Part shown: positions 21,231 to 48,351 of the stretch, one piece after another | Layout: the number at the start of each line of letters is the position of its first letter | How positions within the stretch are numbered: position 1 is the stretch's first letter | IMG/VR virus record: IMGVR_UViG_3300027905_000001 | Coordinates: 1-64,000 of that record | DNA from: a virus | DNA: 64,000 nt | Reading direction: 5' to 3' (one strand) | Program-made: the position numbers and the translations under genes | The notes under the pieces: model-generated | The model's database searches: none | Told to the model about the DNA's origin: nothing | What the model saw: only the letters and a program-made list of their open reading frames with translations

Positions 21231-21232
21231 CG

Positions 21233-22679: not shown

Positions 22680-22700
22680 GAAATTGAAGGAGTGTTAAAA

Positions 22701-22919
22701 ATGAAACGATTAGACATTTTTAAAAGCGAAGGTGGATACAGATTAGCATTGGGAATCTACAACGACAGCCCCGTAATTGACAAGTCTCCTTGGTTCGAAA
22801 CCAAGGAAGAGGCCGAAAAAGCAAGGCGCGAAGTCATAGAAGAAGATGAGCGAGAAGCCAAAATTGAGCAGTATATCCAAGATGGCAATATCGAGGCCCT
22901 CGAAAACATGGATAAGTAA
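22701..22919 (+). CDS. Hypothetical protein (72 aa; track start 22692 GTG)
   Basis: GAAGGAG RBS before ATG 22701; acidic C-terminus. Confidence 0.5.
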   Translation: MKRLDIFKSEGGYRLALGIYNDSPVIDKSPWFETKEEAEKARREVIEEDEREAKIEQYIQDGNIEALENMDK

Positions 22920-23013
22920 TTGCAGAGGATTAGGAGCCTAAAAACTCCTAATAATGCGCTAGGCAAGCGGTTCCAAGCCCGCGCCAATCGCAATTTTGAA
23001 AGGTGGAGCAATC

Positions 23014-23250
23014 ATGAAATACACCATAGCTGAATACCACGGCATAGACCGGCACCAAATGCAAGCCCATACCGAGGAAATCATTACCAAGCTTGAATTT
23101 ATTCGAACAACATGCACGGATGCCGAATCGCTCGAATACACTGACGCCCAACTCGAATTTTACCGCGAAGAACTAGCCAGTAAATCCCTGCTTATGTCAT
23201 CATGGTGGGAAGTTGAGAACTACATGCGGAAAGGTAGGAAAATAGCATGA
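23014..23250 (+). CDS. Hypothetical protein (78 aa)
   Basis: AGGTGGAG RBS before ATG 23014. Confidence 0.5.
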   Translation: MKYTIAEYHGIDRHQMQAHTEEIITKLEFIRTTCTDAESLEYTDAQLEFYREELASKSLLMSSWWEVENYMRKGRKIA

Positions 23251-23438
23251 CCATCTACATCCATGAGTTTTACAAGGACAAGGAAAAGGCGCTCGCATTG
23301 GCTGAACTACCGGACGAACTAGATTATCACCGATTTGTCCACGGCTGTGAGCCTAAAAAGGTGAACATAGTCCCTTATTGGGCAGATTGCGACAAGTACA
23401 AGGCGAATAAGTCCACCATGACACTGTTTATTAGCTAA
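23247..23438 (+). CDS. Hypothetical protein (63 aa)
   Basis: Start overlaps upstream stop (ATGA). Confidence 0.45.
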   Translation: MTIYIHEFYKDKEKALALAELPDELDYHRFVHGCEPKKVNIVPYWADCDKYKANKSTMTLFIS

Positions 23439-23518
23439 CATCAAGGCTTTTAGCCTTGGCTCAGCCGCTTTTTGAGCGGTTCAGCGAGGACTAAAAACGA
23501 ATGAAAGAGGTAATTTAC

Positions 23519-24439
23519 ATGAGCATGATCAACGAACAACTAGCCCAACGATCAAAGGAAAACATGAGTTTTTCCGACTACAAACCCGGCAGCGCAACGG
23601 CTGAATTCAACCAGGAAATAGCCAACGTCACCACGTTAGTTGAATCGGCCAAGCTCAGGGTATCCGACGAAGGGAAAGCCAAGCTAGATCGTTTCCTAGC
23701 CTCTTACACCTCTCGTTATGCCGCATGGACCAATAAGCGCAACGCAAATGGTGCAGGACATGTTAGTGTTATGATCGCAGGCCCAGCTAACTACAACATG
23801 AGAGCGCACGAAAAGTACATGAGCCGTGAAGGTAATCTCTGGAAAGAATACGAGGAATTCCGAAACCCTGAGTATAAAATTTCCTCCATCGTCGCAGGTG
23901 ACAGAGTTATAAAATCCAATGATGTCAACGCTATTGAAAAATTGCAGGAGAAAATAGACGGACTTGAAAAAATGCAGGAATTAATGAAAGCTTGTAACGC
24001 CATCATCCGTAAAAAGAAGCTGACCGACGAAGAGAAGATTGCTGCAATGGTAGAAGCTGGAGCCAGCGAAAAAGCCGCAAAAGAAACCTTGACCCCTAAT
24101 TTTATGGGCAGAATAGGTTTTGCCTCTTATTCGCTCAGTAATAACAACGCAACGATCCGAAACGCCAAGCAACGAATATCCCAGCTTGAGAAGATCGCTG
24201 CACGCGGCACGCAAGAGACTGTCATAGAATCAGACGCGGAGGAAACAAACGGCATACGCATAGTTGACAATGTTGAAGCGCATCGGCTGCAAATATTCTT
24301 TAATGGCAAGCCATCGGCAGAAGTTCGAACACAGTTAAAGAAAAATGGATTTAGGTGGACGCCTAGTATTTCCGCGTGGCAGTCGTATCGAAGTGAGAGC
24401 GCAAACCGGGCAGCGCGTGAAATAGTGGCAGCAATGTAA
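23519..24439 (+). CDS. Hypothetical protein (306 aa) with conserved-looking C-terminal RLQIFFNGKPS...GFRWTPSISAWQSY module
   Basis: AAAGAGG RBS before ATG 23519; C-terminal motif resembles small domains seen in phage/conjugative-element proteins (tentative). Confidence 0.5.
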   Translation: MSMINEQLAQRSKENMSFSDYKPGSATAEFNQEIANVTTLVESAKLRVSDEGKAKLDRFLASYTSRYAAWTNKRNANGAGHVSVMIAGPANYNMRAHEKYMSREGNLWKEYEEFRNPEYKISSIVAGDRVIKSNDVNAIEKLQEKIDGLEKMQELMKACNAIIRKKKLTDEEKIAAMVEAGASEKAAKETLTPNFMGRIGFASYSLSNNNATIRNAKQRISQLEKIAARGTQETVIESDAEETNGIRIVDNVEAHRLQIFFNGKPSAEVRTQLKKNGFRWTPSISAWQSYRSESANRAAREIVAAM

Positions 24440-24523
24440 TTATATCGCGGGACCATCTTTGGCCCTGCTCCAAATGTCCGATTATGGGCACTTGGAGGAG
24501 AATCAAAATTTAGAGGTGATCAA

Positions 24524-24712
24524 GTGGCGGAAACGTGGTTCTCTCGACTTAAAACAGAGATAGAAGATTCGAGAGACTTGCAAGAAATTCTTGGTGTTAA
24601 AGTTATCGAGCATCTTTTGTGGAACAATATCTCTCGCGAACAATACGAAACTCTCTCTAGCCTGCGCGTAAAAAGAATCCTGGAAAATTGGCACGAAGAA
24701 TTTTTGGCTTAA
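24524..24712 (+). CDS. Hypothetical protein (62 aa)
   Basis: Short ORF with GGAGGAG upstream. Confidence 0.4.
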   Translation: MAETWFSRLKTEIEDSRDLQEILGVKVIEHLLWNNISREQYETLSSLRVKRILENWHEEFLA

Positions 24713-24767
24713 ATCCACGCCGGACTATTCCGGTTTTTTCCCAACTAAAATTAAGGAGGAATAACTT

Positions 24768-25382
24768 ATGTTTCATGCGTTCACGCTCGAACAAGCGAAC
24801 CTCAGAGAGGTCCAAGGTTGGAAGGTCGGCCAACATGTCCAAGTCAAAGAATGGCGTGGTACTTACGAAATCGAAGGCTACCACCAATACGGAAGGCAAA
24901 ACGAGTACACCACTGTATACCTTGCCAAGCTCAAGAAAGACGGTACTAAGAGCAAATACAGCGGCGATACACCTATCGCTAACCTCATGCCATTGGGAGC
25001 GGCACAACCAACAACAGACAGCGCAGGACGAACAGCACTGCAGGCGGCACAGGAGCTATTCGGTAGCGGCTTTGCTAAACACGGATGGTATAACACGGAT
25101 CGCGAATCACTGGTAAAGGTTGAGACGATCAGTAAGACAGGACGCGTCAAGGTGCAAGATATAAGCGTCAAGGCTGGAATTACGGCACGTTCAAAGACTG
25201 TAGATGGACATAAAGTTTACAGTCAAGAAGATCGCCTGGTAAACTTTGCGGATCTCGAATACGGTCTAAGTGGAGATATAAAAACATTCACGCCGCGCCT
25301 TTTTTGGGGTGAATGGGGCTTTTGGCATGATGGGGAAATTATCAAGGCCCCAGATATGAAGCTTACGTGGTTGCTAGATTAA
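24768..25382 (+). CDS. Hypothetical protein (204 aa)
   Basis: AAGGAGG RBS; last gene of the island, followed by terminator. Confidence 0.55.
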   Translation: MFHAFTLEQANLREVQGWKVGQHVQVKEWRGTYEIEGYHQYGRQNEYTTVYLAKLKKDGTKSKYSGDTPIANLMPLGAAQPTTDSAGRTALQAAQELFGSGFAKHGWYNTDRESLVKVETISKTGRVKVQDISVKAGITARSKTVDGHKVYSQEDRLVNFADLEYGLSGDIKTFTPRLFWGEWGFWHDGEIIKAPDMKLTWLLD

Positions 25383-25392
25383 CATAATTTAA

Positions 25393-25416
25393 AGCCGGAC
25401 ATCATCCGGCTTTTTG
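25393..25416. terminator. Rho-independent terminator closing the plus-strand island
   Basis: AGCCGGA ... TCCGGCT stem followed by TTTTT. Confidence 0.65.
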
Positions 25417-29544: not shown

Positions 29545-29964
29545 TTACATCTTTTCTGTTGTTTTGTCATACGCTTTCTCCTTTCGATAGTTCAACTCAA
29601 GCGTGGCGTAACCAATTATGTCGCGTATGGTGTCTTCTATCGCCTCGTCCTTTACTTGTGCAGGATTATTATCCAATTGTTCGATGCGGTTCAGCTTGTC
29701 CGATATGCGGATATAGAATCCTACCGGGCCATATTTGTCACGAAGTTGATCATAGGAATTTCCGTAGTCAGTGTTTTTACGTTCGATCAGATCAGCTATT
29801 GGATTAAGGATTTCGGAGAATTTGTTTTCCTTCGGAACTTCGATTGGCATCCAACATTTAAGCCTTGGGATGCATTGATTACATACTATCTGGGCATTAT
29901 CATACTTACAGGTTTTGCACGTTTTATTGATCATTTTGTTCCCCCTTAGCATCGAATATCTCAA
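29545..29964 (-). CDS. Hypothetical protein, tentatively DUF1599-like (nucleotide-modification-associated) with N-terminal Cys pairs
   Basis: CKTCK...CNQC then ERKNTDYGNSYDQLRDKYGPVGFYIRISDKLNRIEQL. Confidence 0.4.
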   Translation of the reverse strand: MRYSMLRGNKMINKTCKTCKYDNAQIVCNQCIPRLKCWMPIEVPKENKFSEILNPIADLIERKNTDYGNSYDQLRDKYGPVGFYIRISDKLNRIEQLDNNPAQVKDEAIEDTIRDIIGYATLELNYRKEKAYDKTTEKM

Positions 29965-30127
29965 GCCTCTTCAGCTCCATCTCGCCATTGACAACTCGAC
30001 TAAATATGTCGCAAAGGATAGCGTTGAGGTCGTTTCGACTTTTGATAGGCGTTGCTTCTGATCGCTTACCGCTGGCCGGAATATCTCCTGCGTAGTATTT
30101 GCCGTTGATGGCTAGGATTTTATTCAT
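29924..30127 (-). CDS. Hypothetical small protein (67 aa; track ORF 29924..30202 trimmed to ATG 30127)
   Basis: MNKILAINGKYYAGD...; upstream part of the track ORF overlaps MazG-like gene. Confidence 0.35.
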   Translation of the reverse strand: MNKILAINGKYYAGDIPASGKRSEATPIKSRNDLNAILCDIFSRVVNGEMELKRLEIFDAKGEQNDQ

Positions 30128-30654
30128 ACTTCCACAAAATATCCTTTCGAAATCAATTTCTTTTCGTGCAATATCCGTTGATCTTCGACCGATATCCCCC
30201 ACTTATCCGCAATAGTATAGATCATCGTGACCGCACTCTGCGCAACGTCGAATGCCTCTTCGATTAATCTTAAAGGATTTCCTTCGCCCGTCTTAAGTCT
30301 CGGTTTCTCTCCGCTCATTTGATTATTTTTACCGATTACTTGAAGTAATTCCCCTAGCTCCTCAATCAACTTGTAGGTGCATGATTCGATAGTTGGTAGG
30401 AGTCCATTGAGTCGGTCGAAGGATATAAATTCTATGGCATCATCTTCTCTGCCTTTCGCCTCAAACCACTCCCCATCCAGACAAGTTTTCCCATCGCAAT
30501 CAGGGTATTTTTTGCAGTTGTTGCAATCCCACTTTTGTTTCCACCCTGTTAAATCATAGACCGTACAGGCCATACTACATGCTAATGTTTCGTGCTTGGC
30601 ACAATTCTCGCATGTCATTTCTCGTTCTTGTCTCATTTCACCGCATTCTTTCAT
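30124..30654 (-). CDS. MazG-like nucleotide pyrophosphohydrolase with N-terminal Cys-rich extension
   Basis: IEELGELLQVIGK and EEAFDVAQSA (MazG-type EExxE helix pair); N-terminal CxxC clusters. Confidence 0.6.
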   Translation of the reverse strand: MKECGEMRQEREMTCENCAKHETLACSMACTVYDLTGWKQKWDCNNCKKYPDCDGKTCLDGEWFEAKGREDDAIEFISFDRLNGLLPTIESCTYKLIEELGELLQVIGKNNQMSGEKPRLKTGEGNPLRLIEEAFDVAQSAVTMIYTIADKWGISVEDQRILHEKKLISKGYFVEV

Positions 30655-30706
30655 TTTGTACCTCCAATTTTTATTTAATTATTGCTATTTAGTTAAACTT
30701 TACTTA

Positions 30707-31219
30707 TTAAAAATCTCCATATAATTCAAGATAGTCTAAAACTACACCACCACACTGACAAACAACATTAAATCCATCAAACTCGCTAATTGGTATACTC
30801 TTCCTTCCTCCTGAGAGTGCATCATTCCAAAACCGCATGAGCTCATCTAGTTCCAGCCTGTAGATTTTATACTTGGTTGTCATTTCGATGAGTAGGAAGG
30901 ATGTTCCGCCTTGAGCCTGCCAATTCTTTAGAAATTCAATTTGATGTGGTTCGATGTTGGATAAAGGGAATCGTTTTTGATCGTGGCATTGTTTGGCATC
31001 AAAGGCGACAGGTGCTCGTCCTTTTACTACTCCAATGTAATCTATTGTTGATTTTTCGCTTGGATAAGCTGACGTAACTTTTCCTTTTGACCAAATAACT
31101 TTCCAAGGAACCCAAACTTTTTGGATAAGAGCATCACCTTTGGCTTGGTATTGCTCGTTGGCATGTTCGATAAGTTGCTCTAGCCCCTTACCCCTATTAG
31201 CGTATAGCGTATTACTCAC
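30707..31219 (-). CDS. recU: Holliday junction resolvase RecU-like
   Basis: 170 aa; STIDYIGVVKGRAPVAFDAKQC...FLLIEM matches RecU core. Confidence 0.65.
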   Translation of the reverse strand: MSNTLYANRGKGLEQLIEHANEQYQAKGDALIQKVWVPWKVIWSKGKVTSAYPSEKSTIDYIGVVKGRAPVAFDAKQCHDQKRFPLSNIEPHQIEFLKNWQAQGGTSFLLIEMTTKYKIYRLELDELMRFWNDALSGGRKSIPISEFDGFNVVCQCGGVVLDYLELYGDF

Positions 31220-31337
31220 TACTTAATTCCCATCCTCCGATCCGTCTTATCCGCCGTTTTCACCATCGCTATTGTCACAATGTAAATAATAATGGCAATT
31301 GTGGATATTGCGCCTGTCCAAAACCCTTGCCACCACA

Positions 31338-31778
31338 CTAGGAATCACCTCTTTCCATGTACAATAAGACAGCCTTGCAAATGGCTCCTGACGCCGTATC
31401 GGCTACCACCCAATCATATTCAATAGTGGCTTTATATACAGTTTCGTCGCCGATACCTGAATAATGTTGGAGATTAGTTGGATAGAAACGGTCAAATAGT
31501 TTCATGGCATCCTCAATACTTCTTGACCAATCTTTTAAGCCATGGACGATATGTTTCATTTCATCAATTTCGCTAGCCTCTATTTGCCTGTATCTTTCCT
31601 TCATGATTTCCGGATTCCTAAAGGCTCTCCACGGTTCCCTATCGTTGGGTTTTTGGAAAATGACATAAAGGTAATCACCTCTTTTTTCTTCCCAAATTGT
31701 CCAACTTAAGACTTTTGTTGCTATTAATAGATTTAGTTTCGTGCCGGGTTTTAAGGTTAAAATCTCATCTCTACTCAC
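31338..31778 (-). CDS. Hypothetical protein (146 aa)
   Basis: ORF track frame, operon context. Confidence 0.5.
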   Translation of the reverse strand: MSRDEILTLKPGTKLNLLIATKVLSWTIWEEKRGDYLYVIFQKPNDREPWRAFRNPEIMKERYRQIEASEIDEMKHIVHGLKDWSRSIEDAMKLFDRFYPTNLQHYSGIGDETVYKATIEYDWVVADTASGAICKAVLLYMERGDS

Positions 31779-31984
31779 TCAACATTCCCCCTCTTCGCCT
31801 TTTTCTTCTTATTCAAAATCTTCTCACATACCCAGCTCATACACTCGCCACATGATCCATTGCACGCTTCTTTCAGCGTTTCACAAACTAAGCCAGCTCC
31901 ATCTTCGCGAGGTGCAGATTCGGGGCATTGTAGGCACTTACACGGACTTCTTACGCGCAGCTTCGATTTAGCTATAGTGATCAA
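31775..31984 (-). CDS. Small Cys-rich protein (69 aa)
   Basis: CKCLQCPE...CNGSCGEC; coupled to neighbours. Confidence 0.4.
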   Translation of the reverse strand: MITIAKSKLRVRSPCKCLQCPESAPREDGAGLVCETLKEACNGSCGECMSWVCEKILNKKKKAKRGNVE

Positions 31985-32004
31985 TCCTTTCTGTTTGTCG
32001 AATT

Positions 32005-32208
32005 TTAGAAGGGTAGCTTAGGTAATTCCTCTAGTAATGGGTTTCTACCATAAACCCTTACCTCGCATTCATCGCAGAAGACAGGGTTTATTGGCATCCC
32101 CCTGCATCCGCATTGTTCACCTTTACAGCAAAATTCTGGTTCGTATTCGTCGTAGACTTCTATTTCTTTGTGGCATCCATCGCATTCGTAGATTTTCAAC
32201 CGAATCAC
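32005..32208 (-). CDS. Small zinc-ribbon protein (67 aa)
   Basis: CDGCHKE...CCKGEQCGC...CDEC. Confidence 0.45.
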   Translation of the reverse strand: MIRLKIYECDGCHKEIEVYDEYEPEFCCKGEQCGCRGMPINPVFCDECEVRVYGRNPLLEELPKLPF

Positions 32209-32216
32209 TCCTTTTG

Positions 32217-32735
32217 TTAATTGATATAATTTGACATTAATTTTGCCCCGGCTTCTTGTACGACCTTAACCGCTTGTTCAAGTTCTTTATATACTCCTAG
32301 CCCTATCTGTTTTCGATTAATCATTAAGTAGGCTCGCCATTTTTTGGATGATTTGCGCCAACTAACGCCCCTAAATCCTGAATTAGTTTTGCATTCTGCT
32401 TTTCTATTTTGCATGTTTACTGAATGAGTTACATTTCTAAGATTCCCTTTTGTATTATTTAATGTGTCATGGTCAACGTGATCTACCACTAAATCATCGG
32501 GGCAATTGGTTATTAATCGATGTAGGCGTTTTGGTTTCAATCCTTCGCTAATCGACACATTACTTATGGCATAAAACGAACTTGTCCCTTCAGACCAAAG
32601 AGCATGCCACTTTGCACCACCTTTTTGGGCTATCTCTAAATCCTCCCTATCAATTAAAGTTTCCATCACAGATCCATCTTCTCTATCTAAAAATATTGCC
32701 ACTTTATCCCCTCTAAATTCGAATCTGTTTTTCAT
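32217..32735 (-). CDS. HNH homing endonuclease with AP2-type DNA-binding domain
   Basis: HRLI...DHVDHDTLNNTKGNLR (HNH) and SGFRGVSWRKSSKKWRAYLMINRKQIGLGVYKELEQA (AP2-like). Confidence 0.75.
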   Translation of the reverse strand: MKNRFEFRGDKVAIFLDREDGSVMETLIDREDLEIAQKGGAKWHALWSEGTSSFYAISNVSISEGLKPKRLHRLITNCPDDLVVDHVDHDTLNNTKGNLRNVTHSVNMQNRKAECKTNSGFRGVSWRKSSKKWRAYLMINRKQIGLGVYKELEQAVKVVQEAGAKLMSNYIN

Positions 32736-32783
32736 ATTCTCACCTCCTTTTCTTATCTATATTATACCATAAGCTTACCTAAG

Positions 32784-32812
32784 TTGCACTAAGGTTAAGC
32801 ATGGTATATAAT
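32784..32812 (+). promoter_or_regulatory. Consensus sigma-A promoter (TTGCAC-17-TATAAT) with flanking inverted repeat TATACCAT/ATGGTATA
   Basis: -35 32784-32789, -10 32807-32812; IR arms at 32763-32770 and 32801-32808. Confidence 0.6.
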
Positions 32813-32830
32813 ATAATTCGAGGTGAGGAA

Positions 32831-32992
32831 ATGGGAGATTTAAAAAACAGGCAAAGATATACAACTTCCTTGGATAATGAGCTAGTGGAAAAGCTCAAAA
32901 AGTTATCAGAGAAGACGAAAATTGCCCAATCAAAGTTACTGGATGAAGCAATAGAATTAGTTCTTAAGAAATATGGGAAGCCTGATAAGTAA
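32831..32992 (+). CDS. Ribbon-helix-helix (CopG-like) DNA-binding protein, paralogue of 38993..39172
   Basis: GAGGTGAGGAA RBS then ATG 32831; RQRYTTSLDNELVEKLKKLSEKTKIAQSKLLDEAIELVLKKYG. Confidence 0.6.
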   Translation: MGDLKNRQRYTTSLDNELVEKLKKLSEKTKIAQSKLLDEAIELVLKKYGKPDK

Positions 32993-33031
32993 GGGTTTCC
33001 CTTCCTTTCTGGTATTTAATTAGAATGATTA

Positions 33032-33446
33032 TCAAAAAGGAATGTCATCATCTAAGGAAACTCCGTGACCAAATGAGCCTTTAGCCTCACTTGAGCTATT
33101 CGAGGATTCCGATAAGTTGCTATTCTTCGGGCTAAGGAATTCCACTTCGTCGGCAATCACGTCGTATGACCTTTTTTTTATTGCCATCCTTATCCGTGTA
33201 ATCACTAATCTGTAGCGACCCTGTGACAAGGGCCTTATTTCCTTTTGCTAATGCGTTTGCACATAGCTCTGCAAGCTGTTTAAAACATTTCACGTTAATA
33301 AAATCTGTCTCTTTCTCGCCTGCGGAATTCTTAAACCTTCGCCCGACCGCTAGTGTGAAGTTGGAAATAGCAACGCCCGAAGTTCCATAGCGTAACTCAC
33401 AATCCCTCGTTAAATTCCCTGACAAAATAATCTTATTCATGCTCAC
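33032..33446 (-). pseudogene. ssb: Single-stranded DNA-binding protein gene interrupted by a frame change in an A8 run (33172-33179)
   Basis: N-terminal OB-fold frame 33132..33446; C-terminal frame 33032..33229 ends in acidic tail DDDIPF; one fewer A restores a ~137-aa SSB. Confidence 0.75.
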
Positions 33447-33615
33447 TTACCTCTTTCTGCTCAATCTCGAACTTAGCCCATAACCACACAATGATATTTA
33501 ACAGATCATCCTTGGTTGTTCCGTTGTGAGTTACTAGGTCTAACTCGTTTTGCACAACTTTAATCTTTTGATATTCTTCTAGCTCATCCCAATTTGGATA
33601 TTTCATTTTTGGCAC
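33433..33615 (-). CDS. Hypothetical protein (60 aa)
   Basis: ORF track frame, coupled to ssb. Confidence 0.4.
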   Translation of the reverse strand: MPKMKYPNWDELEEYQKIKVVQNELDLVTHNGTTKDDLLNIIVWLWAKFEIEQKEVSEHE

Positions 33616-33627
33616 ATCCTCATCCTT

Positions 33628-34032
33628 TTAGATCAAGTATCCTTTTCCCTTGCAACATTCGCACACCTTCCATTGAGTACACATACCCAAGTCGATAAAC
33701 CAACCCTCAAGAACCTCGGTTACCTTTAGCCCCATGCCTTTGTCACCCACCTCTTTTGGCTGTTTCGAACAAGGACTTATATTGCTATCACACTCACATT
33801 CATCGCACTCTTCACAGGCAGTAACCATCGGCATCTTGTCCCACAATATGGATTCCGGCGTTGCTGTGCATTTTTGCTCACCAAGCATTTGCTTTATCGC
33901 TGGATTAAGATTAATTGACCAAAAAAGCATAGCCTTGTTATCCTCATCGTGCCTTAGTGGATGCTTGCCTAAGTAAATGTGAGTCGGTCCACCTTCGAAT
34001 TCGTTGATTATTCTTGGATTCATTTTAAACAC
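33628..34032 (-). CDS. Hypothetical Cys-rich protein (134 aa)
   Basis: CEECDECECD and CECCKGKGY clusters. Confidence 0.45.
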   Translation of the reverse strand: MFKMNPRIINEFEGGPTHIYLGKHPLRHDEDNKAMLFWSINLNPAIKQMLGEQKCTATPESILWDKMPMVTACEECDECECDSNISPCSKQPKEVGDKGMGLKVTEVLEGWFIDLGMCTQWKVCECCKGKGYLI

Positions 34033-34048
34033 ACATCCTCATTATTTT

Positions 34049-34744
34049 CTATTGTCCTATTGGTTCGCTTATTTTCTCGAATTCCAGTACATACACCCAC
34101 GGATTTAAGCCCCATCCGTAGCCTCGTTTTTTGTTTAAATTATCCCAAAGTTCACTAAATGCATCCCTGGCCGTGAGATCAAATTCGGCAACATCGTCAA
34201 ATTTTCCATCACCTATTTTGTCGTGAAAATCAATACAACCTTCGCTTCTTGCGTCTTCCTCAGTTATGATCTGCAACCTCTCGGCTCTAATATTTGTCAC
34301 CTTCAGGAATAACCTAGCGGCTTTGCGTGGCATATAGATCGATGGCCGCCAGTAGTTAAAATGCTCAGGGTTATCATCTGCCCTGTATACTATTGGGCAA
34401 CCTTCAAAATCGTCGATATCAAGTTTTCCAGTTACTACCCGATAGTCCATATCAAGCTGTGACCACGTTTCTCGAACCCAAAGGATATCTCCGACATCAC
34501 GGGGTATTTTGCAATAATGACTTACCCGCCCATTATCCGACTCCCAGCACACGCACCCCTCGTTTTTGGAATTTGTCGAACTCGTGATTCTGCCAATAAT
34601 ATGATAATTTTCAGGCGGTTGATATTTAACTACTCGCCTTGTTTGAGTTTTCCTCCCTTCCAGAATCGCATTAATGGACTCACTAGAAAAAATTATCGGC
34701 TTTTCTTTAATCATTTTTTGCTCCTTTCTAGGCCCTCTATCCAT
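34049..34744 (-). CDS. ASCH/PUA-like domain protein (tentative)
   Basis: 231 aa; EGRKTQTRR motif near N-terminus. Confidence 0.45.
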   Translation of the reverse strand: MDRGPRKEQKMIKEKPIIFSSESINAILEGRKTQTRRVVKYQPPENYHIIGRITSSTNSKNEGCVCWESDNGRVSHYCKIPRDVGDILWVRETWSQLDMDYRVVTGKLDIDDFEGCPIVYRADDNPEHFNYWRPSIYMPRKAARLFLKVTNIRAERLQIITEEDARSEGCIDFHDKIGDGKFDDVAEFDLTARDAFSELWDNLNKKRGYGWGLNPWVYVLEFEKISEPIGQ

Positions 34745-34830
34745 CTCGCCTTATAGTTTTGTACCTATTTTAATTTATCCAAGCCCTAGCACCACTCTAT
34801 GGCCCTCTCATAGGATTATGCTCACTCCCA

Positions 34831-35490
34831 TCATGCGCGGATTACTCGCAATAACATCTCCTCAAATTCAATCTCCCTCAGCTCTCGAAGCGACCTTATG
34901 TTATCTCCCACGACAACCCATGCTTGCTTTATTTTTTCTTCAAGGCCAAAGTTCTCGTCAATATTTGCCATGATTCTGTCCATGACTTCTTCCGTTTCCT
35001 CGACTTCTCGCGCGGTCCATGTTGGTTCTGGTTCGGCTAGGTCGCCAACATCATGATACAAATATGATTCATCCTCAACTTTTTCGTCGAAACATTCTGC
35101 TTCATATGTCCCGTAACATTCTGAAACTTCGCTTTGTGATGTTTTAGGTTCGACTTTACCAACTTCCGCACAATCATCCACCCCCTCACTCTCCAACGCC
35201 TCAGACACATCTTCTCGCTCTTCTACGGCAACCTCAGCCACTTCCTCCGCACTCTCTTTAACTTGCTCGATGACCACCTTTCTTATCTTGATCTTCGCGT
35301 TAGCCTCCAACCCTTTTTTAAGCAAATAAGCTACACTTGTGCTAACGTCATACTTTCGCGCTACGTCGATGGTTAGCCCAATCGCGTTAAACTGTTCTAT
35401 TGTTGTTATTTCTGCTCGCAATTTGTTTGCATTTTCAGATATTTTTGACATGTTCAGCCTCCTCATTCTTGTTATAGTTGCGTTTTCCAT
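34831..35490 (-). CDS. Hypothetical acidic protein (219 aa)
   Basis: ORF track frame; highly acidic middle region. Confidence 0.45.
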   Translation of the reverse strand: MENATITRMRRLNMSKISENANKLRAEITTIEQFNAIGLTIDVARKYDVSTSVAYLLKKGLEANAKIKIRKVVIEQVKESAEEVAEVAVEEREDVSEALESEGVDDCAEVGKVEPKTSQSEVSECYGTYEAECFDEKVEDESYLYHDVGDLAEPEPTWTAREVEETEEVMDRIMANIDENFGLEEKIKQAWVVVGDNIRSLRELREIEFEEMLLRVIRA

Positions 35491-35701
35491 TGTCTGAGTA
35501 TCCTAATTCGTCCCAATCGAAGATACCCACGTTCGAGCCCATGTCATGTTTGGCTCTAAAATTGCAGATCCTTTTGGTGTTGCATCGTAATTCCTCCGCT
35601 ATTTGCCTGTCTGTAAGTCCGTTTAGCCATAGTTGCTCGATAGCTTCAGCTTCCATAGGGCTTATTGATTGTGCCATTTTCATTTTGTACCTCCCTAACA
35701 A
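35435..35701 (-). CDS. Small HTH protein (sigma region-4-like)
   Basis: LWLNGLTDRQIAEELRCNTKRI pattern. Confidence 0.45.
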   Translation of the reverse strand: MLGRYKMKMAQSISPMEAEAIEQLWLNGLTDRQIAEELRCNTKRICNFRAKHDMGSNVGIFDWDELGYSDNGKRNYNKNEEAEHVKNI

Positions 35702-36029
35702 GTTTTACTCCATAAAAATCCATCAACTTCGCACATGTAGGGCAAGGTATAGGATCAACCTCATCAGCGCATACTAGATACAACTCTGCACCTTCAAGGC
35801 TTTCCCTCGCATTAATGAGTGCCATTTGCTCTGCATGCACACTAGAACATTCGGCGTAATCTCCTACGTTATGCTCTATATCCAATCTGGAGCACGTAAC
35901 GCATGTTGTAGGGCTTGTATTCCATCCCTTTGATATAATCTGACCATGCAGGACGATTACGCATGCGTAGCGACGCTTGAGGCAGTTCGAGCAGGGTAAT
36001 AGTTTTCGTGCTTCGTCGAAGTAGTTCAA
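35646..36029 (-). CDS. dCMP/cytidine deaminase family zinc-dependent deaminase
   Basis: VHAEQMALINA ... PCPTCAKLM (HAE and PCxxC zinc-binding motifs). Confidence 0.8.
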   Translation of the reverse strand: MNYFDEARKLLPCSNCLKRRYACVIVLHGQIISKGWNTSPTTCVTCSRLDIEHNVGDYAECSSVHAEQMALINARESLEGAELYLVCADEVDPIPCPTCAKLMDFYGVKLVREVQNENGTINKPYGS

Positions 36030-36751
36030 ATGTTACCCTCCATAGCTTTTCTCAAATCATCCTTGATGTAATAATTGCACCCGTGCATCTTAAGTACCAT
36101 TTCGACATTCTCGCCAGTCTGTTTCCAGTCAATCTGATTCGCTCTTGAATCGTAATTCCAGCGACCAACTTTCCAAAGGTCAACGTGTTTATGGAGAATA
36201 TGGATAAAGTCAAGTGCATCGGCAGGAATGATGATAGGCTCAAGACTTACCCATGTTTTTATTCCAAGCGTTCTTGCCGTTATGATGGCAGCTATTCGAT
36301 CATCTACGGGTGCTGCGCCTTTTTCCCACCGTTCAGAGCATTTGCGGACAGTCAAGGTTGTCCCGAACGAATCACCCTTTTCGTACAAGCTAAAATCTCT
36401 ACTCGCCCTCATGCCGCCTTTTGTTAGAACGGTGAAGTTTGCTCCTGCGTTTTTGATGGCTTCGATAATTTCTTTGGTTGGAGTTGTGTCAATATCGCAA
36501 TAAGGATCTGTTGAAAAGCATAGAAGGATATTCTTGCCTTTGAACTTACCGCTTGATAATTGCTTTTTGGTCGCTTCAACTATTCCTTCGCGCGGTTTAA
36601 CGTCAGCGAAATCTTCGTTTGGTTTCCATCTGTCGTGCATCTTTTTGGCAAAGCAATAAGTACATAAATGTGAACATCCCTCGTAGATATTAAGAGCTAA
36701 GGGTGCATATTCAAGAGCTTTTCCGCTCGGCTTATAAATCGGATTGATCAT
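36026..36751 (-). CDS. Radical SAM enzyme (function unknown)
   Basis: 241 aa; CSHLCTYC (Cx3Cx2C) cluster near N-terminus. Confidence 0.65.
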   Translation of the reverse strand: MINPIYKPSGKALEYAPLALNIYEGCSHLCTYCFAKKMHDRWKPNEDFADVKPREGIVEATKKQLSSGKFKGKNILLCFSTDPYCDIDTTPTKEIIEAIKNAGANFTVLTKGGMRASRDFSLYEKGDSFGTTLTVRKCSERWEKGAAPVDDRIAAIITARTLGIKTWVSLEPIIIPADALDFIHILHKHVDLWKVGRWNYDSRANQIDWKQTGENVEMVLKMHGCNYYIKDDLRKAMEGNI

Positions 36752-39213: not shown

Positions 39214-40440
39214 TTACTCGACCCCTATTCTAGCCCTTGCAATACCCGCATAAGCTTTTTCTTTGTCAATTCCGATAAAATGGCAACCTACACCCTTTGC
39301 GGCCAATGCGGTTGTGCCTGATCCAATAAAGGGGTCTAGCACCGTACCGCCTTGAGGTGTGACAAGTTTAATTAAGTACTTCATGAGATCAAGGGGCTTT
39401 ACGGTAGGGTGATTATTACCTTCGCCCCGTTCCCTCTTGGAGGCCTTAGCACAATAAAAGAATCTACTTGCCCCTCCCGAATCGCCATAACTAATCATTT
39501 CCGTTCCCTCTGGACGACTTTCTCTTGCGTAAGCATTAGCCTGATAACCTTTACTTGATACTCCCTTTTTAGCTCCAGTTCCACTTTTCAGTATGCCTGT
39601 TTGCTCATCCAGAACTGCAGCTGCTACTTCATCAAAAATTATGTTTGCGGGAAATCTTCCCAATGGATTACTTTGGCTTTCTGTTAAGTTGGTTCCCTTT
39701 CCGTTTCCATATACTGTATTTGGTGTACGTGGTGGTCTACCTCTATCGTCATTGGTCCCTATTCGGCTATCGTTGATATTGATCCCACCTGTTCCCCATT
39801 TAAGAACATTAGCCGCCACTGTCTTTTCGCTTAATGGTTTTCTGGCAACTACAATAGGTTCATGCGCAGGTTTTAGAGCCGTACCCCAACCGTCCCATTG
39901 CTTTGCTTCATCAGTTTGAGCATCTAGATCGAATGTTCCACCCAACTCATACGATGCTGGCCTATCTCCCTGCTCTAAATGGATGTTATTGAAACCCATC
40001 CCTTGCTGCTGAAAATTAGTCTTTTCCAGCTTGCAGTAATCCTTTGTATTAGCTGACCCGTAAAGCAGTTTACCTTCAATACCCTTGGCAATGTTGTAAG
40101 ACTTAGGGAATCCACTGCCATAAATCCACATGATCTGATCCCTGATCTCGAATCCAGCGTCTTCAATAGCACAAGCCATTCGGTGGTATGTTCTGCTCCC
40201 ACCGAAGGATAGTAGATATCCCCCAGGCTTTAGTACACGTAAAAATTCTTTCCACATTGCAACGTTGTAGGCAATTCCGGTATTGTCCCAAGACTTCCCC
40301 ATGAATCCCAATTCATAAGGCGCATCCGTTACGCCAGAATCTATACTATTTGCGGGTATTCCCTTCATAACTTCCAGGCAGTCACCTAAAATAATTGAAT
40401 CAAGCAAACTTTTACCCCTCCCTTTACTCAGCCTGTCCAC
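39214..40440 (-). CDS. DNA amino-methyltransferase (N6-adenine or N4-cytosine, beta-class motif order)
   Basis: 408 aa; DAPY catalytic-type motif near N-terminus, AdoMet motif VLDPFIGSGTT near C-terminus; no cognate nuclease adjacent. Confidence 0.75.
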   Translation of the reverse strand: MDRLSKGRGKSLLDSIILGDCLEVMKGIPANSIDSGVTDAPYELGFMGKSWDNTGIAYNVAMWKEFLRVLKPGGYLLSFGGSRTYHRMACAIEDAGFEIRDQIMWIYGSGFPKSYNIAKGIEGKLLYGSANTKDYCKLEKTNFQQQGMGFNNIHLEQGDRPASYELGGTFDLDAQTDEAKQWDGWGTALKPAHEPIVVARKPLSEKTVAANVLKWGTGGININDSRIGTNDDRGRPPRTPNTVYGNGKGTNLTESQSNPLGRFPANIIFDEVAAAVLDEQTGILKSGTGAKKGVSSKGYQANAYARESRPEGTEMISYGDSGGASRFFYCAKASKRERGEGNNHPTVKPLDLMKYLIKLVTPQGGTVLDPFIGSGTTALAAKGVGCHFIGIDKEKAYAGIARARIGVE

Positions 40441-41986: not shown

Positions 41987-42731
41987 TTAAAAAGGATAAA
42001 GTTCTAGTGGAATATTTCTTCCAGCCTCCGCGATTACAACAATTTTTCCTGTCAACTCTTCGATTTCTCTAACCATTCTTTCTGCGTTGGAATTGCTGTC
42101 TGATAAATGAAGTAGCACTATCTTCTTCACTTGCGACAAATCATTAGCTCGCAAAAACTCTTTGACATGCTCAAGTGAAAAATGGCTTTCGAGTAGTCGG
42201 TTTTTCATGCTTTGGGGGATGTAGCCAGCTTCAATGTTTGCGTCAAGGGTATCTTTGCAGTAGTTTGATTCTACAAGGATATAATTTAGTGAATTAAAAC
42301 GATTGCGAATATAGTAGGTATCCGTACAAAAAATAAGTTTTTCGCTGGTTGGTTTGTATTGAATTAGGTAGCCGAAAGGCTGATCGCAATCATGTTGAGT
42401 GTCGAACGGTAAAACGATGAAATCTCCAACTTGAAACTGTACGCCAGCGTCAACCATTTGTGTTCTGTGGCTCTGAGATATGCCTATTTGCTTGGCTGTT
42501 CCGGAAGAGGTATAAATATCTACACCCGCCTTAATAACGTCCTTTGCGCTTCGTGAATGGTCAAAGATGTTCGTGGGTTATTAGGCACCCACGGATACGA
42601 GATAGATTAAAATCTAGGGATTGTTGTATTTTTTTAAAAGAAACTCCACATTCAATTAAAAGAGAACCGGTGTCGCTTTCTAAAACATAGCCATTTGCCC
42701 TTGATGACGAACTGATAACCTTGAGGTGCAT
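41987..42731 (-). pseudogene. MBL-fold metallo-hydrolase gene with frame change inside the HxHxDH motif; 5' end overlaps the HNH gene 3' end
   Basis: N-terminal frame MHLKVISSSSRANGYVLESDTGSLLIECG...ITHEHL then stop; C-terminal frame FDHSRSAKDV... (41987..42457); removing one T at 42563-42565 gives THEHLDHS. Confidence 0.65.
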
Positions 42732-43300
42732 TGTACTTTCCCCTTTCTCTCTTTAAATCTCCAAATGAATCCTCCAGCTTGTTTCCTAGTTAATCCTGGT
42801 TTGTATTCTGTCTCGCTTGCAACTTGAAGAATGTTCCTTCCGCATACTCCAGTTAACCTAAAGGCCTCTTGAGCGTTGGGATATTCGGCTAGTAGCTCGC
42901 CATTTAGGTTGTATTGTTGAATGGCATTAGGTCTTATGAATTTGTTGTATTTATTCATTCCTTTTAGCATGTTTGGATGAATAGATATTGCATGGATAAC
43001 ATTTTCGCTCCCAGATACCCACTCTAGGTTTTCAACCTTGTTGTTTTGCTTATTGCCATCCTTGTGATTTATCTGAGGCTTATTATTGACGTTGGCTATA
43101 AAAGCTTCAGCAACAAGTTTGTGAATTCTCGCATACCTTACACGTCCTTTATGAGTAAGGACTACGGAAAGATAATCCTTTTTACTGTTTTTATTAGACA
43201 AGATAAACCCTTCCCTTAATTTCTTGAAGCTTTTCAACCTACCCTTGGTTGATATTTGATATACACCCTCAAATCCCTCAATATCTTTCCATAGTTCCAA
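42680..43300 (-). CDS. HNH homing endonuclease with NUMOD4-type N-terminus
   Basis: WKDIEGFEGVYQIS...GRL (NUMOD4-like) and HKDGNKQNNKVENLEW (HNH). Confidence 0.75.
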   Translation of the reverse strand: MELWKDIEGFEGVYQISTKGRLKSFKKLREGFILSNKNSKKDYLSVVLTHKGRVRYARIHKLVAEAFIANVNNKPQINHKDGNKQNNKVENLEWVSGSENVIHAISIHPNMLKGMNKYNKFIRPNAIQQYNLNGELLAEYPNAQEAFRLTGVCGRNILQVASETEYKPGLTRKQAGGFIWRFKERKGKVQCTSRLSVRHQGQMAMF

Positions 43301-46380: not shown

Positions 46381-46776
46381 CTATTTCCCATCCTTTTCAG
46401 TTTTATTTTTCCACCACAACGGAAGATTTCTCCTAAACAAGGGCTTATCTCCATCCCAACCGTCGATATTATAAATCGGTATCATCTCCATTAACGCGAC
46501 ATTATGCTCCCTATTGCACCCTTCCGACTGCTCCCAAGCCCCGCATAAAAATATTGCATCGCAGCTACTTACAAGCTCCTCGCAAAAGGTCAGAGCTAAT
46601 GCTCGTTGTTCTGGTACTTTGTCGCTGAGATAGGAAAAAGAGTGAACTGGCGAGATTGGGATAACGCCGAACTTTGTTAATGCTTGGCAGATGTGCGTGA
46701 TGGCTTGGAGGTTTTGCTTTTTGCCGTTGAAGGGGTGGCAGATATACACTTTTTTCATAATTGTCCTCCTTCGCAT
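46381..46776 (-). CDS. Nucleoside 2-deoxyribosyltransferase-like (DUF4406-type) protein
   Basis: VYICHPF...CDAIFLCGAWEQSEGCNREHNVA pattern. Confidence 0.55.
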   Translation of the reverse strand: MRRRTIMKKVYICHPFNGKKQNLQAITHICQALTKFGVIPISPVHSFSYLSDKVPEQRALALTFCEELVSSCDAIFLCGAWEQSEGCNREHNVALMEMIPIYNIDGWDGDKPLFRRNLPLWWKNKTEKDGK

Positions 46777-47403: not shown

Positions 47404-48351
47404 TCATGTTAGTTTTTTACCAATTTCCAAGATAACTTTGGTAGTGCAAGCGTCACCAGCTCCTCGATACATTTGTGTGTCGCTAATTCCTGCAAGCATG
47501 ACCTTATCTATGATTAAGTCAGATATGCTCTGAAGCCTCCAAAACTCACGAGGAGTTAGCCTTCTTAATCTTCCTTCAATAAGTATCTTGGGTTGCCTAT
47601 TCCCGCCTTCACAGGGGGTTATGCAAGGACTTAAGCCATCAATTCCATATACTCTGCGAATATTGTCTTGACCATGTATATCCAGCATCCCGATGACATT
47701 AATCATTGTCATACCGCTGTGATTTCCCCCGCTATGTCCCCCTGCCGTTAATGTTCTAGCAACTGTGGTTTTTGTTGACTTGCCGATTGTAGAATATTCG
47801 TTAACTTCGTATTCGAGAGGAAATACTTTTCCAGTACCTCGTCCTCTAAGATGTCCGACAGTGAACACCCTCTCCCGATTTTGTGGGACTCCGAAGTTTT
47901 TGCTGTTGAGCAGTTCCCACTCCACGTCATACCCCAGTGCGTCCATTTGATAGAGTATTTCGAGGTAGTCAAATCCTTTATTGCTGGATAGCATTCCCTT
48001 AACGTTTTCATAGAGAATATACTTGGGTCGATATTCTTCTGGAGTCTCCCTGACGAGTCTAAATACTTCTGAAACAAGAGAACTTCTGTCTCCCTCAAGC
48101 CCTGCTCGCTTTCCTGCAATACTAAAGTCTTGGCAAGGTGCTCCGAAGCACCACATGTCTGCCCTTGGAATGTCTGTAGCATTAGTTGCTCTAATGTCTG
48201 CACCTTCTGGCTCCTTCCCAAAAATTATTTTGTATATTTGTCGTTTGTGCTTGTCCCATTCAACCGAGTAAACACATTTATGTCCAGCTTGCTCCATGCC
48301 CATTCGGATTGTGCCGATTCCACAGAAGAGATCGATGAAGGTTAAATTCAT
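47404..48351 (-). CDS. DNA (cytosine-5)-methyltransferase
   Basis: FCGIGT (motif I-like), PCQDFS (catalytic PC motif), ENV motif. Confidence 0.85.
   Translation of the reverse strand: MNLTFIDLFCGIGTIRMGMEQAGHKCVYSVEWDKHKRQIYKIIFGKEPEGADIRATNATDIPRADMWCFGAPCQDFSIAGKRAGLEGDRSSLVSEVFRLVRETPEEYRPKYILYENVKGMLSSNKGFDYLEILYQMDALGYDVEWELLNSKNFGVPQNRERVFTVGHLRGRGTGKVFPLEYEVNEYSTIGKSTKTTVARTLTAGGHSGGNHSGMTMINVIGMLDIHGQDNIRRVYGIDGLSPCITPCEGGNRQPKILIEGRLRRLTPREFWRLQSISDLIIDKVMLAGISDTQMYRGAGDACTTKVILEIGKKLT

Follow-up and report, generated by a model that had tools for sequence, protein, structure and literature searches.

Does a cluster of nucleotide- and DNA-directed genes in the early operon of a phage make up one pathway for DNA base modification, or do the genes serve separate purposes? 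The question concerns positions 29545-36751 of a window of 64,000 nucleotides, the whole stretch of viral DNA that was analyzed. The initial annotation placed there a possible base-modification set that, with further genes of the same operon, would help the phage to evade restriction. In our analysis, the nucleotide- or DNA-directed functions of these genes in an early phage operon stood, but a single base-hypermodification pathway did not. The flagged genes look like ordinary phage thymidine-precursor supply and simple DNA methylation, beside an unrelated radical-SAM enzyme. Taken overall, the best explanation is three independent functions (pyrimidine pool, methylation and a stand-alone radical-SAM enzyme), to which we give a probability of about 0.5 on genes and context, not biochemistry.

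The prophage and its early operon

The window contains a serine-integrase prophage in 'Candidatus Desulfosporosinus infrequens', an anaerobic, spore-forming sulfate reducer. Its early operon runs on the minus strand and carries all the flagged genes, and every ORF named earlier was recovered in place on that strand (Table 1). The equipment of the prophage includes a serine recombinase, a RecT/SbcC-like/MBL recombination set, DnaD/DnaC-like loaders and RecU; no DNA polymerase, ThyA or ThyX was found among its scanned ORFs. We read the region as the stretch of a temperate prophage's early operon that serves replication and accessory functions.

Table 1. Flagged genes of the early operon and the matches on which their assignments are based.
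Feature	Coordinates	Strand	Evidence
DUF1599 protein	29545..29964	-	Pfam PF07659 28.1 bits (cutoff 25), E 2.7e-6; phrog_1485 7e-24
Small conserved partner ORF of MazG-like gene	29924..30202	-	phrog_36537, 2e-8
MazG-like all-alpha (d)NTP pyrophosphohydrolase (predicted), two N-terminal Cys4-W modules	30124..30654	-	EExGE...ExxD, Foldseek
dCMP deaminase, short (127 aa)	35646..36029	-	PF00383 dCMP_cyt_deam_1 39.1 bits (cutoff 25); phrog_174 'dCMP deaminase' 2e-22
Radical-SAM protein, 241 aa, phage-specific SplB-like/DUF5131-like clade	36026..36751	-	Pfam Radical_SAM 35.6 bits (cutoff 29.5)
Orphan N6/N4 (amino) DNA methyltransferase	39214..40440	-	NCBIfam CcrM-like 2.3e-23, PRK13699 3.8e-21
DUF7768/DUF4406 protein (nucleoside 2-deoxyribosyltransferase-like)	46381..46776	-	PF24963 2.8e-14, PF14359 1e-8, phrog_355 7e-21
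Orphan Dcm-type C5 cytosine DNA methyltransferase	47404..48351	-	TIGR00675 212 bits (cutoff 100.65)

The four genes of the 29545-36751 segment do lie within about 7 kb, as described, but with other genes interspersed: RecU, an ABA-sandwich protein, an HNH-AP2 endonuclease, a frameshifted SSB, phrog_874 and a number of small ORFs. Over the whole flagged set, eleven unrelated replication and recombination genes intervene. A decaying prophage, whose gene set no longer serves a phage programme, would fit the two single-base homopolymer frameshifts of this operon, one in SSB (A8 run at 33172-33179) and one inside the HxHxDH motif of a metallo-beta-lactamase recombination gene (TTT at 42563-42565). 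Both frameshifts could, however, be metagenome assembly errors. Every flagged gene is intact, with its catalytic motifs preserved, and so, within the part scanned, is the structural module (TerS, TerL, portal, major capsid protein and tape measure); we consider decay improbable.

The two orphan methyltransferases proved to be a C5 and an amino enzyme, as annotated, with no restriction enzyme evident beside either. The CcrM-like and PRK13699 matches of the amino enzyme are each split in two stretches. Both enzymes would provide ordinary protective methylation of the phage DNA (m5C; m6A or m4C).

Probable genes of the pyrimidine pool

The tentative DUF1599 assignment was confirmed by a Pfam match above the cutoff. 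Its ORF likely starts at the ATG at 29934; the protein has one CxxC..CxxC..W module, and the motifs KNxDYGNS, DKxxR and DExxxDTxxD are conserved in the family alignment (A6). For the MazG-like protein, no match was found in Pfam, the family profile hits the integron MazG structures (iMazG) 2q73 and 2q5z weakly (E 0.19 and 0.4), and the hhalign probability is 4%. EELGE (residues 98-102) and EAFD (residues 133-136) are invariant in the family alignment (A2), and homologues are labelled 'nucleotide pyrophosphohydrolase' in their source databases. In Foldseek, the top 14 matches of the confident C-terminal half of the AF2 model are DCTPP1/RS21-C6/AF1178 all-alpha dNTP pyrophosphatases (probability <=0.96, E ~0.1), led by dCTPases, the mammalian DCTPP1 structures (0.96). 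Motif, weak profile matches and fold together support the name MazG-like, though not strongly; the Cys-rich N-terminal extension noted earlier is real. For the partner ORF, the likely start is an ATG at 30127 that shares bases with the stop codon of the MazG-like gene (ATGA); a similar small ORF lies 3' of MazG-like homologues in loci L012, L013, L167-L173, L169/L175 and L183.

In other phages, the DUF1599 and MazG-like families keep the company of RNR, DNA polymerase, ThyX and dUTPase. Among 79 viral DUF1599 loci, DNA polymerase A lies at most two genes away in 42, ThyX within 5 kb in 42, and dUTPase in 39; a dUTPase-ThyX-DUF1599 block is known from Asgard viruses (bioRxiv 10.1101/2021.07.29.453957). 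The MazG-like gene and small ORF are followed by ThyX in L169 and by DUF4406 and then ThyX in L183, ThyX follows directly in L184, and DUF4406 relatives also adjoin MazG-like and ThyX genes in L164. Since the MazG-like gene, the small ORF, DUF1599 and DUF4406 recur beside ThyX and dUTPase, their company points to conditioning of the dUMP/dTMP pool.

The dCMP deaminase call also held, with HAE at residue 65 and PCPTC (PCxxC) at residue 95. Judging from family membership and gene context, the MazG-like (DCTPP1-resembling) protein, the small ORF and DUF1599 would hydrolyse dCTP, dUTP or 5-methyl-dCTP to monophosphates, and the deaminase would turn dCMP into dUMP and perhaps 5-methyl-dCMP, on which dCMP deaminase is active, into dTMP. 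The host thymidylate synthase would complete the thymidylate supply. The DUF4406 protein, whose likeness to nucleoside 2-deoxyribosyltransferases was borne out by a phrog of that name, probably has deoxynucleosides or deoxynucleotides as substrates, for salvage or cleavage. Phage T4 has a pyrimidine shunt of this type, in which the gp56 dCTPase and the Cd dCMP deaminase, an all-alpha dNTP pyrophosphatase plus a deaminase, lead from dCTP through dCMP to dUMP, as proposed here. Unlike T4, the window phage has neither a dCMP hydroxymethylase nor a thymidylate synthase; its MazG-like and deaminase genes lie 5 kb from each other, relatives do not carry the two together, and the substrates of their products are predicted.

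The radical-SAM protein

The radical-SAM enzyme was correctly recognized by its CSHLCTYC motif (CX3CX2C, residues 26-33). It had been left open that the protein might be a housekeeping activase; profile searches placed it instead with uncharacterised SplB-like/DUF5131-like enzymes, so a DNA-modification role may apply to this gene alone. An identity as a glycyl-radical-enzyme activase (NrdG/PflA-like) or as a QueE-type 7-deazaguanine enzyme is very improbable: no NrdG, PflA or QueE model of NCBIfam or Pfam matches at E<=0.01, and the best NCBIfam matches are COG1533-type families, all scoring far below their cutoffs. NrdD, PFL, QueC, QueD, FolE and DpdA are absent from the window and from the recurrent neighbours, and the family motifs (CFxCDPY, LTKGG, RDFDL and EPxAA..R) are unlike those of activase and QueE models.

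The clade is large and phage-borne (949 clusters at E<=1e-30), and its hosts, drawn from many phyla, are nearly all strict anaerobes; a methanogen is among them. The nearest solved fold is that of spore photoproduct lyase (SPL, SplB; PDB 4fhc), whose EPGTSSFDGR...GYK...APIY aligns with the EPxAAxxxxR...G(I/Y)K...xxP block of the family; the family profile gave no sequence-level match to SPL in PDB. SPL has about 340 aa and the window protein some 100 residues fewer, so that the SPL C-terminal region is largely absent. Further differences are that the catalytic Cys140 of SPL aligns to an invariant Phe of the family, that position 34 is Phe where SPL has the second motif tyrosine, and that many hosts of the family are non-spore-formers. 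Most homologues have a precomputed match to DUF5131 (PF07505; phage Gp37/Gp68 family), and DUF5131 proteins are likewise phage- or prophage-borne, but the window protein scores 21.2 bits, below the gathering cutoff of 28.9. The DUF5131 protein of L167 has CX5CX2C and 335 aa, whereas the window protein has the canonical spacing. The wider SplB-like/COG1533 proteins (PA0069 and Rv2578c families) are among the closest known systems, and other SplB-like proteins have been connected with SOS/translesion and PCNA-binding repair genes (PMC3765255, PMC4929162).

We infer a stand-alone, DNA-directed radical enzyme. It would direct a 5'-deoxyadenosyl radical at DNA, with a pyrimidine lesion or adduct met during replication as the most likely target, and would repair or process DNA independently of oxygen, outside any base-biosynthesis pathway.

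Gene neighbourhoods and possible joint functions

We surveyed 163 loci with radical-SAM relatives (139 groups after dereplication at 90% identity). DUF1599 occurs in one of the 163, the MazG-like family in four to five (L005, L010, L012 and L013 by BLASTP, L007 by profile search) and the deaminase in one, 8.2 kb away. A MazG-like profile match in L009 was rejected because the protein is a DUF3850/ASCH protein.

In the window, the TTG start of the deaminase overlaps the radical-SAM stop (TTGA) and is preceded by a GGAGGG ribosome-binding site, by which the deaminase appears translationally coupled to the radical-SAM gene. Such an overlap usually signals co-expression and counts against independence. 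It would suit a joint pathway in which the flagged genes, from DUF1599 to the methyltransferases, together replace or hypermodify a base for restriction evasion. Every component acts on nucleotides or DNA, members of this gene pool adjoin one another repeatedly in related phages, and phage M6 uses the SPL-like radical-SAM protein gp53, described when reported as the first radical-SAM enzyme installing a DNA modification, in thymidine hypermodification (PMC8989533). This isomerase shares with the window protein its phage origin and, by structure prediction, its likeness to SPL, and it acts on DNA (PMC8989533), as the window protein would, but the M6 cluster has 5-HMUDK, aGPT-Pplase and a PLP decarboxylase acting on 5-hmdU DNA, none of which is found here. 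Among window ORFs of at least 110 aa and in the early operon, we found no route-defining enzyme: no dUMP/dCMP hydroxymethylase, base kinase such as 5-HMUDK, aGPT-Pplase, glycosyltransferase, DpdA, QueC, QueD or QueE, nor FolE or PurZ among the scanned ORFs. A tblastn search of cultured phage records with the radical-SAM protein gave 14 matches and no Pseudomonas phage such as M6. The phage lacks its own polymerase, the genes do not co-occur across the 163 loci, and the DUF1599 and MazG-like company described above is that of canonical dNTP supply. The radical-SAM/deaminase adjacency is specific to the window phage, as the gene downstream of radical-SAM in relatives of 77% and 81% identity is no deaminase. 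On this evidence we regard joint hypermodification as unlikely.

The slot immediately upstream of radical-SAM is held by MazG-type, DUF1599, DUF4406/DUF7768 or DUF3850/ASCH genes in L010, L012, L013, L016, L058, L029, L084 and L009. MazG-type gene, small ORF and radical-SAM form a cassette that recurs in L012, L013 and L016 (in L010 without the small ORF), and its third slot holds a true DUF5131 protein in L167/L168 and ThyX in L169. From these neighbours and slot swaps, the enzyme could act on pyrimidine nucleotides, namely dUMP, dCMP or dTMP from the MazG-like protein and the deaminase, for example by modifying C5 without folate or by a step like that of thymidylate synthase that would suit anaerobes. 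The overlap of DUF1599 with radical-SAM in L058, the adjoining DUF7768 or DUF4406 in L029, L084 and L062, and the coupling to a dUMP-producing deaminase agree with this, as does the thymine C5/C6 centre of SPL chemistry. However, ThyX and radical-SAM occur together in L019/L020 and L050, so there is no clean displacement, and the near-invariant family Cys81 is Thr in the window protein. Radical-SAM methylation of uracil C5 has no precedent known to us. Most of the 139 groups have DNA methylases, ParB, ParA or a sliding clamp nearby and no nucleotide-metabolism neighbour, and the fusion partners (D5 primase-helicase, Prim-Pol and ParB_N) are DNA-replication proteins, although these fusions may be gene-calling artefacts. 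A nucleotide-level role is therefore doubtful.

Returning to a stand-alone, DNA-directed enzyme, no neighbour is universal across the 139 groups. ParB_N(-methylase) genes are present in 61 of them, Dam lies at most two genes away in 7 of its 12 groups, and a small methyltransferase-like family does so in 12 of its 13 (P 1e-5). These enrichments are modest and confounded by common ancestry of the loci.

Prophage setting of the early operon

The window carries a prophage, whose landmarks are listed in the table together with the genes discussed here; portal, major head protein and tape measure genes were also found in ORF scans. A 123,551-bp contig of 'Candidatus Desulfosporosinus infrequens', a sulfate reducer of peat soil known from a metagenome-assembled genome (PMC6372793), encodes proteins 100% identical to the window's radical-SAM, MazG-like and DUF1599 ones. 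No DNA-level match to positions 29.0-37.5 kb was found by megablast in cultured phages. In our scan of the early operon and of ORFs of at least 110 aa, DnaD/DnaC-like loaders were present and no phage DNA polymerase was matched; the phage appears to depend on these loaders and therefore to use the host replisome.

Coordinates of the features discussed (positions in the window)
Feature	Position	Strand
Large terminase subunit	13686-15410	
Small terminase subunit	19231-20130	
Island between early operon and terminase genes	20200-25400	+
HNH_repeat protein, free-standing HNH-type endonuclease	20619-21230	+
Primase-like protein (phrog_19458)	23501-24439	+
Early operon, long	~50 kb to 26 kb	-
DUF1599 protein	29545-29964	-
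Small ORF (phrog_36537)	29924-30127	-
MazG-like protein	30124-30654	-
HNH_3+AP2, free-standing HNH-type endonuclease, adjoining SSB	32217-32735	-
SSB	33032-33446	-
phrog_874 protein	34049-34744	-
Predicted dCMP deaminase	35646-36029	-
Radical-SAM protein	36026-36751	-
Amino methyltransferase	39214-40440	-
Metallo-beta-lactamase recombination gene	41987-42731	-
NUMOD4+HNH_3, free-standing HNH-type endonuclease, between RecT and metallo-beta-lactamase gene	42680-43300	-
DUF7768/DUF4406 protein	46381-46776	-
~140-aa ORF	46755-47183	-
C5 methyltransferase	47404-48351	-
~140-aa ORF	48348-48767	-
Anti-repressor and Rha-like regulators	50.8-52.4 kb	
Serine recombinase	53348-54826	+
FtsK/SpoIIIE-family ATPase and Replic_Relax protein	56524-58605	+

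Two genes of the early operon carry homopolymer frameshifts. SSB is broken in a run of eight A (33172-33179), where deleting one A gives back a normal SSB with its DDDIPF end, and the split gene is either a pseudogene or an assembly error. In the metallo-beta-lactamase recombination gene, an extra T (TTT at 42563-42565) shifts the frame inside the HxHxDH motif; relatives such as the related contig L003 hold this gene as one 246-aa ORF. An intron split, involving the upstream HNH ORF, was rejected, since a single nucleotide shifts the frame and the HNH gene is free-standing. With two such frameshifts in one operon, this copy of the prophage may be decaying or mis-assembled.

The plus-strand island coding for the HNH_repeat and primase-like proteins may be an inserted element or a satellite. 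On the right-hand side of the serine recombinase gene, the FtsK/SpoIIIE-family ATPase and the Replic_Relax protein suggest a second, conjugative-type mobile element adjoining the prophage.

One modification pathway or three functions

The initial annotation had read the early operon genes as a possible set for modifying the nucleotide pool or DNA bases. All of its named ORFs are present on the minus strand, Pfam and PHROG agree on the DUF1599, deaminase, radical-SAM and DUF7768/DUF4406 proteins, and the catalytic motifs are intact in the radical-SAM, deaminase and MazG-like proteins. The four genes said to lie within about 7 kb are all there but form no contiguous block, being interrupted by genes for RecU, an ABA-sandwich protein, an HNH-AP2 endonuclease, SSB, the phrog_874 protein and several small Cys-rich ORFs.

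We compared 163 loci bearing relatives of the radical-SAM gene (80 from viral contigs, 80 from genome contigs and 3 from look-ups of the exact protein), dereplicated to 139 groups. Among the 163, the deaminase family of the window occurred once, 8.2 kb away, DUF1599 once, the MazG-like family in 4-5 and DUF4406-type genes in about 10. Hallmark enzymes were not found either. Scans of all ORFs of at least 110 aa and of the early operon turned up no thymidylate-synthase-like hydroxymethylase, base kinase, aGPT-Pplase, glycosyltransferase, DpdA/QueCDE or PurZ. Pfam, PHROG and NCBIfam models likewise returned no M6/ViI-type dUMP hydroxymethylase, 5-HMUDK kinase or aGPT-Pplase from these ORFs, and the 7-deazaguanine (Dpd/phage preQ0) set, consisting of DpdA/TGT with QueC, QueD, QueE and FolE, was not found. 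The hypermodification interpretation finds partial support: the gene identities hold, but neither co-occurrence nor a hallmark enzyme among the ORFs scanned backs a single pathway.

The best reading is that three unrelated functions lie side by side, namely conditioning of the pyrimidine pool, ordinary DNA methylation by orphan enzymes and a SplB-like radical-SAM enzyme. NCBIfam identified the methyltransferases as a Dcm-type C5 and an N6/N4 enzyme. As a caution for annotation, a deaminase, a MazG-type protein, DUF1599, methyltransferases and a radical-SAM protein found together in a phage do not indicate DNA hypermodification; such genes are drawn from a shuffled accessory pool serving thymidylate/dNTP supply and anti-restriction.

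The two ~140-aa ORFs flanking the C5 methyltransferase look paralogous, and one ORF of the related locus L004 matches both.

Affiliation and context of the radical-SAM protein

The 241-aa protein matches Pfam Radical_SAM (35.6 bits, cutoff 29.5), and its CX3CX2C [4Fe-4S] motif (CSHLCTYC) and partial TIM-barrel fold place it in the radical SAM superfamily. Its best NCBIfam matches were the COG1533-type models Rv2578c, PA0069 and 'radical SAM mobile pair B', at 52, 47 and 37 bits with partial coverage against cutoffs of 430, 360 and 410, which indicates a related superfamily and no family membership. Profile searches, proposed in order to classify this protein and the DUF1599 one, therefore took the radical-SAM protein to the superfamily only, its family cutoffs being missed, while PF07659 settled DUF1599 above its cutoff. 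A housekeeping activase is very unlikely: no NrdG or PflA model matched, and neither NrdD nor PFL was found in the window or among the recurrent neighbours. Most homologues bear PF07505 (DUF5131, Gp37/Gp68), for which the window protein scores 21.2 bits, under the gathering cutoff of 28.9. In RadicalSAM.org, DUF5131 shares one megacluster with spore photoproduct lyase (SPL, SplB).

Direct searches for SPL were negative: NCBIfam gave no SPL model at E<=0.01, the single-sequence search of PDB nothing meaningful, and the family profile against PDB chance matches only, with no SPL chain at E<=10. Foldseek of the model against BFVD returned generic radical-SAM proteins only. We then aligned the family by hhalign with the SPL sequence of 4fhc, taken from the PDB search (E 0.008, probability 2%). 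The cluster motif GCxxxCxYC and the EPxAA....R block line up. The catalytic H-donor cysteine of SPL (Cys140/141) falls, as Cys140, opposite an invariant Phe79, with an invariant Cys78 one residue upstream, in an alignment of 14-19% identity that may be off by one. As for the Tyr96/Tyr98 radical relay of SPL, this alignment pairs Tyr32 with Tyr96, while position 34 holds Phe in the window protein and Tyr in most of the family; the near-invariant family Cys81 is Thr in the window protein. Conserved residues include C78, C81, Y84, K111, R115, R118, R152 and K194. SPL is about 340 aa long with a C-terminal DNA-binding extension, whereas the window protein has no counterpart for some 100 of these C-terminal residues. 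The motifs align, but with the C-terminal residues missing and no SPL match in the direct searches, the predicted protein is SPL-like and not an SPL.

The clade is large: 949 clusters (50% identity) match the family at E<=1e-30 and 7454 at E<=1e-3, and only 14 cultured phage records match the protein, at no more than 35% identity. Nearly all hosts with a prophage copy are strict anaerobes; they span many phyla and include Dehalococcoidia, Desulfovibrio, Thermodesulfovibrionales, Coriobacteriia, Treponemataceae and a methanogen. Because so many of these hosts are non-spore-formers, and one an archaeon, we rejected a spore-specific SP lyase.

No neighbour of the radical-SAM gene is universal among the 139 groups. 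ParB_N(-methylase) genes occur in 61 of them and are at most two genes away in 21 (P 0.011). Of the 13 groups with a small methyltransferase-like family, which neither NCBIfam nor Pfam identified, 12 have it within two genes (P 1e-5), and Dam is as close in 7 of its 12 groups (P 0.003). C5 methylases, ParA, ASCH-like proteins and the beta sliding clamp also recur. In three library proteins (P0227, P0244 and P0253), the radical-SAM domain is fused to D5_N/DUF5906 primase-helicase, Prim-Pol and ParB_N; these fusions could be real or gene-calling artefacts. Relatives of the 231-aa phrog_874 protein, which has no Pfam match and nothing meaningful in a single-sequence PDB search, occur in 14 of the 163 loci and overlap the radical-SAM gene directly in three (L061, L091 and L139).

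SplB-like proteins of non-spore-formers have been tied to SOS/translesion operons and to archaeal PCNA-binding repair genes (PMC3765255, PMC4929162), and M6 gp53, the phage radical-SAM enzyme of thymidine hypermodification, is SPL-like and works on DNA (PMC8989533). From these links, the neighbours and the fusions, we tentatively take the protein for a stand-alone radical enzyme that is directed at DNA and serves anoxic hosts. Action on nucleotides instead is a less likely alternative, suggested by gene order: in the closest Peptococcaceae-type phages, MazG-type, DUF1599, DUF4406/DUF7768 or DUF3850 genes often lie directly upstream of the radical-SAM gene, and its slot can hold ThyX. Simple replacement of ThyX is itself unlikely, because both genes occur together in three loci.

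It is a long shot that the clade runs an undescribed radical reaction on DNA or pyrimidine nucleotides, either as an O2-independent lyase of non-spore lesions or crosslinks or as a modifier fed by the MazG-like, deaminase and DUF1599 proteins; with the modifier, prophage DNA would carry a new non-canonical pyrimidine. Literature searches found no functional studies of DUF5131, Gp37Gp68, DUF1599 or DUF4406. With thousands of SPL-like members in phages of strict anaerobes, the clade merits biochemistry; SplB-like proteins beyond spore-formers are a long-standing puzzle, and a phage version that is small, soluble and stand-alone makes them tractable at the bench.

Probable pyrimidine pool genes and the MazG-like unit

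The deaminase scores 39.1 bits against PF00383 (dCMP_cyt_deam_1; cutoff 25) and 2e-22 against phrog_174, and with HAE at 65-67 and PCPTC at 95-99 it fits a CDA-fold dCMP deaminase. Its gene overlaps the radical-SAM stop in a TTGA, with a GGAGGG ribosome-binding site. In relatives 77% and 81% identical, the gene overlapping that stop codon is no deaminase, so the coupling is private to this phage.

The MazG-like protein has no Pfam or NCBIfam model match. Its EExGE...ExxD signature (EELGE and EAFD here) is invariant in 23-24 homologues, and the AF2 model has three confident C-terminal helices, for which the top 14 Foldseek matches were DCTPP1/RS21-C6/AF1178 (probability up to 0.96). A metal-binding motif on a helical bundle supports a place in the MazG/all-alpha NTP pyrophosphohydrolase superfamily. 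The family profile matched integron MazG structures weakly (E 0.19 for 2q73, and 0.4), as did hhalign with canonical phage MazG (E 0.011, probability 4%). Single-sequence PDB searches with the MazG-like, DUF1599 and DUF4406 proteins gave nothing meaningful.

The DUF1599 protein scores 28.1 bits against PF07659 (cutoff 25), in keeping with DUF1599/NMAD1, and this domain was found on 19 of the 22 proteins listed in its homologue search, the window's own sequence included. No relationship to the MazG-like protein was found by BLASTP, nor to MazG-type profiles by hhalign with shallow alignments. Viral contigs very commonly encode DUF1599, with 580 confirmed stretches. Of 79 DUF1599 loci, 42 have a family-A DNA polymerase no more than two genes away, 42 have ThyX within 5 kb and 39 carry a dUTPase gene; RNR and an AAA_33 kinase are frequent neighbours as well. 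A dUTPase-ThyX-DUF1599 block of Asgard viruses has been read as thymidylate supply (bioRxiv 10.1101/2021.07.29.453957). The DUF7768/DUF4406 protein has Pfam E values of 2.8e-14 and 1e-8. Judged by gene context, the MazG-like, DUF1599 and DUF4406 proteins are consistent with routine adjustment of the dNTP and thymidylate pools. A DCTPP1-like pyrophosphatase together with a dCMP deaminase would turn dCTP and dUTP into dUMP for the host thymidylate synthase.

The Cys-rich N-terminus of the MazG-like protein consists of two CxxC-x(5-14)-CxxC...W modules (residues 15-42 and 44-63), each probably a zinc ribbon. One such module occurs in the DUF1599 protein, at residues 16-38 from the 29964 start or 6-28 from the 29934 ATG, and at least one copy in 10 of 23 MazG-like homologues, once C-terminal. 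The module behaves like a mobile mini-domain.

On its 3' side, the MazG-like gene almost always has a small ORF of about 67-80 aa (phrog_36537) whose start codon overlaps the MazG-like stop, in the window and in the related loci L012, L013, L167-L173, L169/L175 and L183, which suggests a two-gene unit. As third gene, the window has DUF1599, L012 and L013 have a radical-SAM gene of the window family, L167 has a true DUF5131 protein of 335 aa and L169 has ThyX; in L183, a Cys-rich ORF, DUF4406 and then ThyX follow. In L184, ThyX lies directly 3' of the MazG-like gene without the small ORF, and the order in L164 is DUF3850/ASCH, MazG-like, DUF4406. The radical-SAM neighbour in L009, considered as MazG-like, was rejected since Pfam identifies it as DUF3850/ASCH. 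In L183, 3' of the MazG-like, small ORF and DUF4406 genes, a LAGLIDADG-type insertion at 4646-6118, an intein or a homing endonuclease, splits ThyX.
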